Part shown: piece after piece, positions 5,558-31,893 of the stretch | How the letters are laid out: each line of letters opens with the position of its first letter | Position numbering within the stretch: the stretch's first letter is position 1 | From: Eledone cirrhosa | Taxonomy: Eukaryota | NCBI GenBank assembly: GCA_964016885.1 | Contig: OZ024757.1 | Location: forward strand, 124,001 to 188,000 | Direction of reading: 5' to 3' | DNA length: 64,000 nt | Made by a program: the position numbers and the translations under genes | The notes under the pieces: model-generated | Told to the model about the DNA's origin: nothing | What the model saw: the letters and a program-made list of their open reading frames with translations, nothing else | Databases searched by the model: none

Positions 5558-7171
5558 CTATGGTTTCTCTCCTATATGGATGAGATTGTGTGTTGTTAAA
5601 TGTCCTTTCAGAGAGAATGATTTACCACAGATATCACAGTGGTATGGTTTCTCTCCTGTATGAATACGTTTGTGATTTGTTAAGACATTATTTTGAGAGA
5701 ATGATTTACCACAGATATCACAGTGATAGGGCTTCTCTCCTGTATGGATGAGATTGTGTGTTGCTAAGTGTCCTTTCTGAGAGAATGATTTACCACAGAT
5801 ATCACAGTGGTATGGTTTCTCTCCTGTATGAGTAAAATTGTGTGTTAATAAGCTTCCTTTCTGTGAAAATGACTTACCACAGATATTACAATGGTATGGC
5901 TTCTCGCCTGTATGAATAAGATTGTGTAATGTTAAGTGTTTTTTCTGAGAGAATGATTTACCACAGATATCACAGTGGTATGGTTTCTCTCCTGTATGAG
6001 TAAGATTGTGTGCTAATAAGCTTCCTTTCTGTGAAAATGACTTACCACAGATATTACAATGGTATGGCTTCTCTCCTGTATGGATGAGATTGTGTGTTAA
6101 TAAGCTTCCTTTCTGTGAAAATGACTTACCACAGATATTACACTGGTATGGCTTCTCTCCTGTATGAGTAAGATTGTGTGCTAATAAGTGTCCTTTCTGT
6201 GAAAATGACTTACCACAGATATTACAGTGATATGGCTTCTCTTCTATATGAATAGATTTGTGATTTGTTAAGACATTATTTTGAGAGAATGATTTACCAC
6301 AGATATCACAGTGGTATGGTTTCTCTCCTGTATGAATACGTTTGTGATTTGTTAAGGCATTATTTTGAGAGAATGATTTACCACAGATATCACAGTGATA
6401 GGGCTTCTCTCCTGTATGGATGAGATTGTGTGTTGTTAAGTGTCTTTTCAGAGAGAATGCTTTACCACAGATATCACAGTGGTATGGTTTCTCTCTTGTA
6501 TGAGTAAGATTGTGTGTTAATAAGCTTCCTTTCTGTGAAAATGACTTACCACAGATATTACAATGGTATGGCTTCTCTCCTGTATGAGTAAGATTGTGTG
6601 TTAATAAGTTTCCTTTATGTGAAAATGACTTACCACAGATATTACAGTGATATGGCTTCTCTTCTGTATGAATAGATTTGTGATTTGTTAAGACATTATT
6701 TTGAGAGAATGATTTACCACAGATATCACAGTGGTATGGTTTCTCTCCTGTATGAATACGTTTGTGATTTGTTAAGACATTATTTTGAGAGAATGATTTA
6801 CCACAGATATCACAGTGATAGGGCTTCTCTCCTGTATGGATGAGATTGTGTATTGTTAAGTGTCCTTTCTGAGGGAATGATTTACCACAGATATCACAAC
6901 GGTATGGTTTCTCTCCTGTATGAATACGTTTGTGATTTGTTAAGACATTATTACGAGAGAATGATTTACCACAGATATCACAGTGGTATGGTTTCTCTCC
7001 TGTATGGATGAGATTGTGTATTGTTAAGTGTCCTTTCTGAGAGAATGATTTACCACAGATATCACAATGGTATGACTTCTCTCCTCTATTCTTTGTTATC
7101 TCATTAGGAATACTAATACCTTTAGGCAGTGTTTCACATTTAACCTTCTTCTCACCCAACTTATTTTCCAT
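5558..7171 (-). CDS. Poly-C2H2 zinc-finger protein with 18 fingers, a short N-terminal leader and no visible effector domain
   Basis: 18 x 28-aa CxxC..HxxxH-TGEKP repeats. The ORF-track start at 7192 is TTG; the first in-frame ATG is at 7171 (MENKLGEKK). Ends at a TAG replacing the Tyr of finger 19. Confidence 0.93.
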
Positions 7172-7528
7172 AATGTCTCTTCTTCTCACCAAAGTATATA
7201 GACGTTTTTCTTGTGTTATATTTATATTATATTTCTAGAAATATTGTCTGATTCTATATTTCAATCAACTTTGATCTCAGTTAATATCTGAAGATTATGA
7301 AAACTTCTTTGTCATCCAAGTTTAATTAAAATACAAAATCTTCATTCGAGATAGTGAAGAAACGAACATTTGCCAATAAACTCACTTCTGATGAAATATT
7401 TTACAGTAAGTCAGTCATAGATTTATATAATCAGTGTTATATCAGTTCTGTATAAAACACTTTAGTCTTTGATGATAAATGTTGATGTATCCAAGGTTTA
7501 AAAATTTATCCCAATGTCATCTGGTATT

Positions 7529-7550
7529 CTGAAATAAGAAAGAAACAGTA
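7529..7550 (-). promoter_or_regulatory. Putative splice acceptor of the ZNF coding exon
   Basis: Minus strand reads tactgtttctttcttatttcag|AATACC (pyrimidine tract plus CAG). Same in unit 2, with the AG at 32251..32252. Confidence 0.6.
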
Positions 7551-7675
7551 TGAGTTAATACAGAATACTTAAATACTAGAGATAGATTTATTAGAGCAAA
7601 TTTTAAACTTTTATATCAATAATCTCTAGATATAGACCTTTAATTGAAAAATCAACTTTAGTTTTTAATTTGTTA

Positions 7676-28760: not shown

Positions 28761-29039
28761 TACCATTTTACAGGGTTAACTGTGTGTGAATCCTTCTATT
28801 CATTTGGGAACATATTCAACTTTGATAATAAATTGACTAAATTAGTAAATTCTATACCATACAGTAGTTTCAACACAAGTCTTGGTTAGATCTTCTACAA
28901 ATAAACTGAGAGGAGGGTAATTTTTTAGTAAACCAGTTTTATTATGAACATTTACAACATAGGTGGCACAATCCTGGGTGACTGGTGTGGTTTTTATCTT
29001 GTCTTATTGTGTTTGTGTTTCATTAAACAACTTTTACAA

Positions 29040-29757
29040 GAGAATATTTTACCAAATATCACAGAGATGTGGCTTCTCTCCTATATGAATAAGTTTGTGT
29101 GTAGTTAACTTGTTACATACACAGAATGATTTACCACATATATCACAGTGATACGGCTTCTCTCCGGTATAGTATAAGTTAGTGTCTAGTGAAGTGACTA
29201 ACTTGAGAGAATAATTTAACAGACATCACAGTGATATGGTTTCTCTCCTGTATAAGTTAGAGTCCAGTGAAGAGACTTCTTACAGAGAATGATTTACCTC
29301 AGAGGTCATAGTAATATGGCTACTGTATGTGAACATTTGTGTTTAGTTAAGTTAGCTTTTAGAGACAATTATTTACCACATATGGCAGTGATATGCCTTC
29401 TCTCTTGTATGTATATGTTTATGTGTAGTTAAGTGTGTAAATCGAGAGAATGATTTACCATAGATATCACAGTCATATCGCTCCTCTCCTATAAGAATAG
29501 GCTTGTGAGTTAAGTTTCATCATTGTCAGAATGATTTACCACAGATATCACAATGAAATGGCTTCTCTCCTGTATGTATATATTTGTGTAGTTAAGTAGC
29601 TACTCATGGAGAATGATTTACCACAGATTTACCAGTGCTATGGCTTCTCTCCTTCATGAATAGATTTGTGAATTGTGAAGTAATTATATTGAGAGAATGA
29701 TTTACCAGATATTACAGTGATATGGCTTTTGTCCTGTATGAGTGAGATTGTGGGTTG
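29040..29757 (-). pseudogene. Decayed C2H2 finger repeats downstream of the stop of ZNF gene 2
   Basis: Same broken 84-bp repeats as 4740..5515. Confidence 0.88.
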
Positions 29758-31893
29758 CTAATTTCCTTTCTGAGAGAATGATTTACCACAGATATCACAG
29801 TGGTATGGTTTCTCTCCAGTATGAATACATTGGTGATTTGTTAAGGAAGTAGAATGAGAGAATGATTTACCATAGATATTACAGTGCCATGGCTTTTGTC
29901 CTGTCTGAATATATTTGTGAGTAGTTAAGCAAGTAGATAGAGAGAATGATTTCTCTCCTATATGGATGAGATTGTGTGTTGTCAAATGTCCTTCCAGAGA
30001 GAATGATTTACCACAGACATCACAGTGATATGGTTTCTCTCCTGTATGAATACGTTTGTGATTTGTCAAGACATTATTTTGAGAGAATGATTTACCACAG
30101 ATATCACAGTGATAGGGCTTCTCTCCTGTATGGATGAGATTGTGTGTTGCTAAGTGTCCTTTCAGAGAGAATGATTTACCACAGATATCACAGTGGTATG
30201 GTTTCTCTCCTGTATGAGTAAGATTGTGTGTTAATAAGCTTCCTTTCTGTGAAAATGACTTACCACAGATATTACAATGGTATGGCTTCTCTCCTGTATG
30301 AGTAAGATTGTGTGTTAATAAGTTTCCTTTCTGTGAAAATGACTTACCACAGATATTACAGTGATATGGCTTCTCTACTGTATGAATAGATTTGTGATTT
30401 GTTAAGACATTATTTTGAGAGAATGATTTACCACAGATATCACAGTGATAGGGCTTCTCTCCTGTATGAATACGTTTGTGATTTGTTAAGACATTATTTT
30501 GAGAGAATGATTTACCACAGATATCACAGTGATAGGGCTTCTCTCCTGTATGGATGAGATTGTGTGTTGCTAAGTGTCCTTTCTGAGAGAATGATTTACC
30601 ACAGATATCACAATGGTATGGTTTCTCTCCTGTATGAATACGTTTGTGATTTGTTAAGACATTAATTTGAGAGAATGATTTACCACAGATATCGCAGTGA
30701 TAGGGCTTCTCTCCTGTATGGATGAGATTGTGTGTTGCTAAGTGTCCTTTCAGAGAGAATGATTTACCACAGATATCACAGTGGTATGGTTTCTCTCCTG
30801 TATGAATACGTTTGTGATTTGTTAAGACATTATTTTGAGAGAATGATTTACCACAGATATCACAGTGATAGGGCTTCTCTCCTGTATGGACGAGATTGTG
30901 TGTTGCTAAGTGTCCTTTCTGTGAAAATGATTTACCACAGATATCACAGTGGTATGGTTTCTCTCCTGTATGAGTAAGATTGTGTGTTAATAAGCTTCCT
31001 TTCTGTGAAAATGACTTACCACAGATATTACAATGGTATGGCTTCTCTCCTGTATGAGTAAGATTGTGTGTTAATAAGTTTCCTTTCTGTGAAAATGACT
31101 TACCACAGATATTACAGTGATATGGCTTCTCTTCTGTATGAATAGATTTGTGATTTATTGACACATTATTTTGAGAGAATGATTTACCACAGATATCACA
31201 GTGGTATGGTTTCTCTCCTGTATGAATACGTTTTTGATTTGTTAAGTCATTATTTTGAGACAATGATTTACCACAGATATCACAGTAGTATGGTTTCTCT
31301 CCTGTATGAGTAAGATTGTGTGTTAATAAGCTTCCTTTCTGTGAAAATGACTTACCACAGATATTACAATGGTATGGCTTCTCTCCTGTATGGATGAGAT
31401 TGTGTGTTAATAAGCTTCCTTTCTGAGAGAATGATTTACCACAGATATCACAATGGTATGGCTTCTCTCCTGTATGAATACGTTTGTGATTTGTTAAGAC
31501 ATTATTTTGAGAGAATGATTTACCACAGATATTACAATGGTATGGTTTTTCTCCTGTATGGATGAGATTGTGTATTGTTAAGTGTCCTTTCAGAGAGAAT
31601 GACTTACCACAGATATTGCAGCGGTATGGTTTCTCTCCTGTATGAATACGTTTGTGATTTGTCAAGACATTATTATGAGAGAATGATTTACCACAGATAT
31701 CACAGTGGTATGGTTTCTCTCCTGTATGGATGAGATTGTGTCTTGTTAAGTGTTCTTTCTGAGAGAATGATTTACCACAGATATCACAATGGTATGACTT
31801 CTCTCCTCTATTCTTTGTTATCTCATTAGGAATACTAATACCTTTAGGCAGTGTTTCACATTTAACCTTCTTCTCACCCAACTTATTTTCCAT
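29758..31893 (-). CDS. Poly-C2H2 zinc-finger protein with 22 finger repeats (one His>Gln) plus 3 degenerate or partial C-terminal fingers
   Basis: ORF 29758..31914 starts at TTG; first ATG at 31893. The N-terminal leader is identical to gene 1. Confidence 0.93.

Follow-up and report, generated by a model that had tools for sequence, protein, structure and literature searches.

Cephalopod genomes hold hundreds to thousands of C2H2 zinc-finger genes, and how their specificity diversifies is an open question. Expansion, clustering, neural expression and predicted transposon binding have been described for them (PMC12513265, PMC9795677, PMC9068888, PMC10547256; here and below, published work is cited from the part of each text that was available). 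Octopus was among four species for which the predicted motifs of zinc-finger proteins (ZNFs) were tested on transposon libraries, and the authors conclude that ZNFs prefer transposon sequences (PMC10547256). The present analysis concerns two predicted genes of this class, A and B, on the minus strand of a stretch of 64,000 nucleotides (nt) from Eledone cirrhosa (assembly GCA_964016885.1, contig OZ024757.1, positions 124,001 to 188,000 of the forward strand). This whole stretch is referred to as the window, and all coordinates are positions within it.

In recent paralogs of KRAB-ZNF and poly-zinc-finger genes, fingers have been duplicated, deleted or inactivated, so that their number differs between copies (Emerson and Thomas 2009, PMC2604467), and paralogs share one finger count in only 1 of 24 expansions (PMC2604467). 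The arrays of PRDM9 change by duplication, deletion and conversion (PMC3890296, PMC2794550, PMC5519329), and in mouse Prdm9 the centre of the array is more variable than its ends (PMC3890296). Homogenised fingers are described as very unusual outside PRDM9 in mammals (PMC2794550). Taken alone, a difference in finger number between young paralogs is ordinary.

The explanation that we consider probable is that A and B are copies, about 98% identical, of one poly-C2H2 gene that is likely from octopus and has no effector domain, and that the two are likely young paralogs in tandem. In this gene a finger repeat of three lineages, built of dimers and pentamers in a fixed pattern, would gain and lose blocks, likely by misaligned recombination. 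The array is a coding minisatellite with higher-order structure, and it changes through block turnover that keeps to the pattern, through conversion and through point changes.

Two tandem units with one predicted poly-C2H2 gene each

The window contains two tandem units of about 20 kb, each flanked by blocks of a 40-bp satellite and each carrying one minus-strand poly-C2H2 open reading frame (ORF). Unit A (3404..24040) and unit B (27365..47189), listed like the satellite blocks without a strand, differ by 254 substitutions over 12,937 aligned unique bases (1.96%, with a per-block range of 1.1-4.1%) and by 53 indel events. The satellite bounds unit A at 1..3403, lies between the units at 24041..27364 and bounds unit B at 47190..63998. 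The left part of the middle block resembles the right block, its right end resembles the end of the left block and its interior is distinct. The satellite is a likely substrate for the gene duplication. It has a strong strand skew (GC skew about 0.55), and the right block contains more than 30 variant monomers in a stretch repeated in the same order.

Gene A (5558..7171, minus strand) encodes a leader of 33 amino acids and 18 C2H2 fingers, the array occupying 5561..7072. Gene B (29758..31893, minus strand) encodes the same leader and 22 units (29947..31794), followed up to the stop codon by two degenerate units and half a finger. An earlier reading made from the letters alone, here called the sequence-only reading, had reported identical leaders and arrays of 18 and 22 fingers. 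The stretch from the ATG to finger 1 differs at 0 of 98 nt, and the counts are correct for 84-nt units; B7 lacks its first zinc-binding histidine (H>Q), so that the C2H2 pattern counts 21 intact fingers in B and 18 in A. All 40 units are exactly 84 nt long and in frame, and 34 of the 40 sequences are distinct. The Pfam families zf-C2H2 and zf-H2C2_2 score far above cut-off in both products, whose tandem C-X2-C-X12-H-X3-H fingers are joined by TGEKP linkers. By their sequence, A and B are thus poly-C2H2 (tandem Krüppel-type) zinc-finger genes, with putative sequence-specific DNA binding from what is known of the family.

Gene A ends at a TAG; the corresponding codon in B is TAC (Tyr), with which the next unit starts, and 141 nt present in B in this stop and tail region are missing from A. 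Past the stops, the minus strand carries dead fingers: about 11 units behind A (4690..5557) and about 9 behind B (28998..29757), the two tails being colinear with 2.0% divergence. Frameshifts are present in the dead tails and in none of the 40 units of the arrays.

The leader of 33 amino acids aligns without gaps with that of the Octopus sinensis ZNF P0210, which has the same length and start. The finger scaffold YHC[DN]ICGKSF occurs in 4 of 240 fetched proteins, three of them from octopus, and a homologue search with the B-array region gave three named octopus proteins among the 120 matches listed. These resemblances suggest that A and B are likely genes of octopus type. Residues 1-120 retrieved generic ZNFs, nearly all from vertebrates, and residues 1-40 no candidate; the ESM Atlas returned generic chordate ZNF clusters. 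A 54-amino-acid leader compared with 1.84 billion representatives gave one borderline, unrelated match and no leader relative, and the four exact protein forms had no match in the protein collection searched.

Finger lineages and the order of the arrays

Three old lineages, xKGH, QNNV and QKGS/QKGN, make up the 40 fingers, which follow one another in h-R dimers and in an R-S-n-s-h pentamer. By type, array A reads hRhRSnshRSnsshshRh and array B hRhRssRSnshRhRhRSnshRh. The small helix alphabet of the sequence-only reading holds: 30 of the 40 helices are one of the five 4-mers it had named (QKGH, QNNV, QKGN, QKGS and LKGH), and the other 10 are variants. A tree of all 84-nt repeats from both genes, as that reading had proposed, groups fingers by type and not by gene (14 gene-label changes against a shuffled mean of 13.1); it is used for this clustering only, because conversion breaks the assumptions of a tree.

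Order within the arrays is strongly patterned. Only 10 of 25 possible types of neighbour pair occur, a number as low being reached in 0 of 100,000 shuffles (p < 1e-5), and the pattern RSnsh occurs three times and RSns four times, neither count being reached in 100,000 shuffles. The five-finger module of 420 bp (QNNV-KR, QNNV-KS, QKGN, QKGS, xKGH) that had been described at three places is confirmed at A4-8 (6401..6820), at B7-11 (30871..31290), where B7 and B8 are damaged, and at B16-20 (30115..30534), which shares an exact match of 207 nt with B8-11. A further copy, of four fingers, had been overlooked at A9-12 (6065..6400) and differs from A4-7 at 11 of 336 nt. All four lie on the minus strand.

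The arrays were aligned unit by unit with whole-finger gaps, 13 pairs being stable over gap costs of 3-8. In this alignment 14 of the 18 fingers of A are colinear with B, with 32 differences over 1176 nt (2.7%), near the divergence of the flanks. The difference between the arrays consists of four in-frame block indels of two to three fingers (A12-14, B5-7, B11-12 and B14-15) and one replaced finger, A3/B3. Colinearity holds at both ends of the arrays (fingers 1-2 and the final four) and in the dead tail, and the centre is variable. The claim that the arrays differ in number and order therefore stands for number and was overstated for order, since most fingers of A keep their place. Order follows a fixed inherited pattern, not free combinatorial shuffling.

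Signs of exchange between fingers

Identical units are found at distant positions: A4=A17, B6=B10=B19, B9=B18 and B13=B20. No exact repeat in either array, or shared by the two, is longer than the one of 207 nt inside B. Six of the 40 fingers are explained better, by at least 3 nt, as mosaics of other fingers, and three gene-private letters are each common to two or three fingers. Mosaics tend to lie in the gene-specific blocks, with 6 of 12 against 4 of 28 elsewhere at a gain of at least 2 (p=0.026) and 4 of 12 against 2 of 28 at a gain of at least 3 (p=0.055). In the description of the locus as a recombinatorial shuffle like a coding minisatellite, the minisatellite behaviour is upheld by type clustering, distant identical units and mosaics, while free shuffling is contradicted by the restricted neighbour pairs and by colinearity. 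As for conversion among the 84-nt repeats, mosaics, shared gene-private letters and four-gamete failures speak for it and the PHI-like test does not.

Several results weigh against the explanation favoured here. The enrichment of mosaics in gene-specific blocks is gone at a gain of at least 4 (p=0.21), a PHI-like recombination test within the finger unit is not significant (p=0.12), and the four-gamete test, in which 161 of 351 site pairs are incompatible, gives counts that recurrent mutation can inflate. No read or contig listed from four runs spans either array, and neither contig depth nor the mapping of satellite variants separated paralogs from alleles. Rare amino-acid variants are denser at contact codons than synonymous ones, with an omega of 3.5-4.4 (p=0.002-0.008) in a count to which some old steps that define the finger types also contribute, and this argues against neutrality as the whole story.

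Paralogs, alleles or assembly error

Tandem paralogy has to be weighed against the idea that A and B are alleles of one locus, joined by the assembler through the 40-bp satellite, in which case 18 and 22 fingers would be a polymorphism within one animal and the idea of the sequence-only reading would be strengthened. Heterozygosity in cephalopods, about 1.2% in squid (PMC9068888), is close to the per-block divergence of 1-4%, and the same satellite bounds both units. In run X1, depth is 56 for a leader contig that is mostly common to the copies and 58, no lower, for an intron contig that is mostly copy-specific, although contig depth is not copy number. This intron contig has letters of A and of B at a distance of 23 bases, suggesting a third version. 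The middle satellite, by contrast, is just 3.3 kb long and differs in its interior, and it matches the two outer blocks at 88-98% with no exact overlap; about 350 extra bases stand at the junction of unit B, and the window contains no N. On this balance the allelic explanation appears quite unlikely.

That the array differences are errors of assembly is very improbable. Such errors would agree with the lack of any listed piece spanning an array, and the exact order of fingers is accordingly without read support. The longest exact repeat is, however, only 207 nt, which makes error inside the arrays unlikely; the uniform, in-frame and mostly distinct units also argue against it, as do gene-private letters that recur in several fingers. 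Of the other runs, X21, from restriction-site-associated DNA (RAD), has 98% of its placed reads running on unlike the window, and X5 offers short pieces only. Young tandem paralogy thus remains the preferred reading of the two copies.

Contact residues: neutral or adaptive change

Helix positions -1, 2, 3 and 6 are the DNA-contact positions of C2H2 fingers. Only 2 of the 16 three-finger contact words of A are also found in B, and the predicted binding words would therefore have changed a lot between the copies. Much of the contact change is substitution in place, since 7 of 14 colinear finger pairs have a new contact signature. The rapid combinatorial change of specificity proposed earlier is retained as far as predicted contact words go; free combination and a rapid adaptive character like that of PRDM9 are not.

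Length change in the arrays needs no selection, since non-coding minisatellites in the same two units vary as much or more. Their lengths are 686 and 465 bp, 3766 and 1094 bp, and 387 and 373 bp (changes of 48%, 244% and 4%), against 1512 and 1848 bp (22%) for the finger arrays.

At the level of residues, the finger scaffold is constrained over all variants (omega 0.30, p=0.001), whereas contact codons over all variants have an omega of 1.66 (p=0.09). Within colinear pairs, contact replacement affects 9 of 133 sites against 12 of 808 other non-synonymous sites (p=0.001) and also exceeds the divergence of the flanks (p=0.001). It is not significantly above synonymous change (11 of 235, p=0.27), nor is it when gene-private letters only are counted (4 of 133 against 2 of 235, p=0.13). 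On these comparisons of codons, which are suggestive only, positive selection on contact residues possibly contributes.

They bear on a stronger proposal, an adaptive engine like that of PRDM9, in which array turnover and positive contact selection would go on generating new specificities, as it might in an arms race against transposons or satellites. The excess of contact over other non-synonymous change and over the flanks, the omega of rare variants at contact codons and the new signatures in half of the colinear pairs all agree with it, as does the transposon preference of ZNFs for which predicted octopus motifs were among those tested (PMC10547256). The synonymous and gene-private comparisons and the omega over all variants do not reach significance, and the selection tests were several and post hoc. 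The share of diversity at contact sites is 0.27-0.39, against 0.69 in human and 0.91 in mouse PRDM9, and the damaged B7 and B8 and the premature stop in A suggest loose constraint. A continuing adaptive engine is thus rather doubtful, and patterned block turnover, to which selection possibly contributes, is preferred.

Upstream exon, transcription and effector domains

The coding exon of A begins at a splice acceptor (7529/7528), and its 5′ untranslated part (7172..7528, minus strand) contains a stop in frame with the ATG and 22 codons ahead of it. This part also holds five short upstream ORFs, of 4-15 codons and out of frame, which may damp the translation of A. The 3′ end of an upstream exon lies at 18981..19000 (minus strand), beside a GTAAGT donor, across an intron of about 11.45 kb that ends at 7528. 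Two contigs of run X4 leave the window at 7530, and their 18 loose letters are exactly those of 18983-19000, beside this donor. At the upstream-exon junction unit B is one letter off, and the X4 junction carries the letter of A. Run X4 also has zero depth in the intron bin. From this junction and the lack of intron depth we infer that X4 is RNA, that the family is transcribed and that A or a close relative is spliced across the intron. A search of sequencing runs listed no RNA run containing the sequence.

Further members of the family are indicated by leader variants at higher depth in runs X1 and X4. An X4 contig over the dead tail (4981-5172) has two other letters over both sites where B differs, the letter of B being listed at 5038. 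An alternative acceptor at 7234 remains a candidate, since the loose contig ends listed were 24 of about 1000. Between the upstream and coding exons, a possible mini-exon of 17 nt (17888-17904, minus strand) has a good acceptor and donor, and another GTAAGT donor lies near 18041 (minus strand); the X4 junction skips both.

A transcript of the X4 type encodes leader and fingers only, because of the in-frame stop between the acceptor and the ATG. In the leader and 74 gene-strand frames of at least 40 amino acids upstream in unit A, no Pfam family, SET and KRAB included, scored up to its cut-off, nor was an N-terminal KRAB, SCAN, BTB or ZAD effector domain found, in a search that covered frames outside the intronic 44-bp satellite and exons of 40 codons or more. 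One match, to ATG9, stayed below threshold, at 15.9 bits against a cut-off of 27. The absence of SET and KRAB remarked on in the sequence-only reading is borne out by this search. PRDM9 itself was considered as an identity for A and B and rejected: the same frames contain no KRAB, SSXRD or PR/SET, and the stop precedes the ATG.

A and B might alternatively be decaying, near-neutral copies whose arrays drift like any minisatellite, with no target that matters. The omega of rare non-contact variants (0.9-1.4) is what such decay would give, and the lost zinc ligand of B7, the stop in A where B reads on, the 9-11 dead units behind each gene and the five upstream ORFs point the same way. Yet the scaffold is constrained over all variants, frameshifts are confined to the dead tails and a spliced transcript of the A/B gene family exists. 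Decay as the whole explanation is therefore unlikely, and turnover in genes under some scaffold constraint is the reading carried forward here.

A proposed mechanism

A unit of about 20 kb would have been duplicated by unequal exchange in the satellite, giving the double unit now seen between satellite blocks. Near-identical fingers of the same type would mispair, and unequal crossover, slippage or gene conversion would then add or remove two to three fingers in frame. Such gain and loss of blocks would keep the h-R and R-S-n-s-h pattern and leave chimeric fingers at the junctions; the ends of the array would stay colinear, the centre would vary and old fingers would decay past the stop codon, as the two copies display. 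Block changes together with substitutions at helix positions -1, 2, 3 and 6 are predicted to change which DNA sequence is bound. Likely targets, to judge from what has been predicted in print for octopus ZNFs, would be repeats or transposons.

A broader and doubtful extension is that the octopus C2H2 expansion consists in part of effector-less genes with polymorphic finger exons of the coding-minisatellite kind. Turnover and contact selection would give each copy, possibly each allele, a new specificity, satellites would drive duplication and the dead tail would record the history. If this were true, the diversification engine of PRDM9 would be in use across a multigene family.

Other elements in the units

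Unit B alone contains an insert of 2.1 kb (42337-44434), flanked by two identical direct repeats of 369 bp. The first repeat is followed by a primer-binding-like TGG, and a purine-rich run leads up to the second. The insert includes long poly-A runs and a CAG/CAA-rich tract, and looks like a very recent non-autonomous long terminal repeat (LTR) element. The intronic 44-bp satellite occupies 13971-17736 in unit A (3766 bp) and 38661-39754 in unit B (1094 bp). A fragmented element resembling a long interspersed element (LINE) lies on the plus strand at about 10800-13000 and 35300-37900, in antisense orientation within the introns of A and B. A weak endonuclease match, below cut-off, falls in one of its pieces, and similar-looking decayed pieces lie 3′ of each gene. 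At 23153-23270 and 20905-21000 in unit A, near-perfect inverted repeats with long, hairpin-like arms were seen by eye and are possibly miniature inverted-repeat transposable elements (MITEs).

Comparison with known zinc-finger systems

Like the cephalopod expansions described so far, in the parts of these accounts available, A and B are clustered, likely lineage-specific poly-C2H2 genes (PMC9068888, PMC9795677, PMC12513265); two copies stand in tandem, and transcription is indicated by the splice junction in the X4 contigs. In the text available, the published accounts treat gene counts, clusters and expression and not turnover at the level of fingers (PMC9068888, PMC9795677, PMC12513265). The word 'conversion' has no match in the available text of PMC12513265, nor have 'conversion' and 'minisatellite' in that of PMC10547256. 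By titles and abstract openings, no report of minisatellite-like finger turnover in cephalopod ZNFs was found in a literature that covers subscription journals thinly, which leaves its absence from print unestablished.

Recent poly-zinc-finger and KRAB-ZNF paralogs resemble A and B in that finger number differs between copies (PMC2604467). Mammalian genes of this kind, however, have diverse fingers within one gene and usually a KRAB, SCAN or BTB domain, whereas A and B have near-copy fingers of three lineages in a higher-order pattern, with no effector found. The pair shows the process at 2% divergence, through four block indels, chimeric fingers and contact change in 7 of the 14 fingers that pair up. 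It is also a warning not to rely on family trees or short-read assemblies of such ZNF genes.

With PRDM9, A and B share an array of 84-nt units in one exon and homogenised fingers, and a centre more variable than the ends, as in mouse Prdm9 (PMC3890296). Mean nearest-neighbour identity between fingers is 0.94-0.955, a level reached by 3 (for A) and 2 (for B) of 158 fetched arrays, a set biased to query-like, mostly vertebrate arrays from which 82 of 240 proteins without a run of at least six fingers had been dropped. The two highest values in it belong to a named PRDM9 and a SET-bearing protein. Unlike PRDM9, A and B have three divergent lineages and not one (mean identity 83% in nucleotides and 0.77 in amino acids), differences that appear spread over non-contact positions, a dead tail, membership of a multigene family and no known link to meiosis.

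The share of diversity at contact sites was computed after PMC5519329, with residue numbering as interpreted in this analysis. At residues 11, 12, 15 and 18 it is 0.31 for A and 0.27 for B, exceeded by 65 and 115 of the 158 arrays respectively, and at positions -1, 2, 3 and 6 it is 0.36-0.39. In the available rows of that study, full-length PRDM9 ranges over 0.33-1.0, with the human and mouse values cited above, and low-ranked SET-only genes have about 0.18-0.19 (PMC5519329). A and B thus stand above the low-ranked SET-only genes and below nearly all full PRDM9 rows viewed (PMC5519329). Because homogenised fingers are so unusual in mammals outside PRDM9 (PMC2794550), this homogenised invertebrate array, effector-less and with higher-order structure, is a testable variant. 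The A/B array works mutationally like a PRDM9 array but is not PRDM9.

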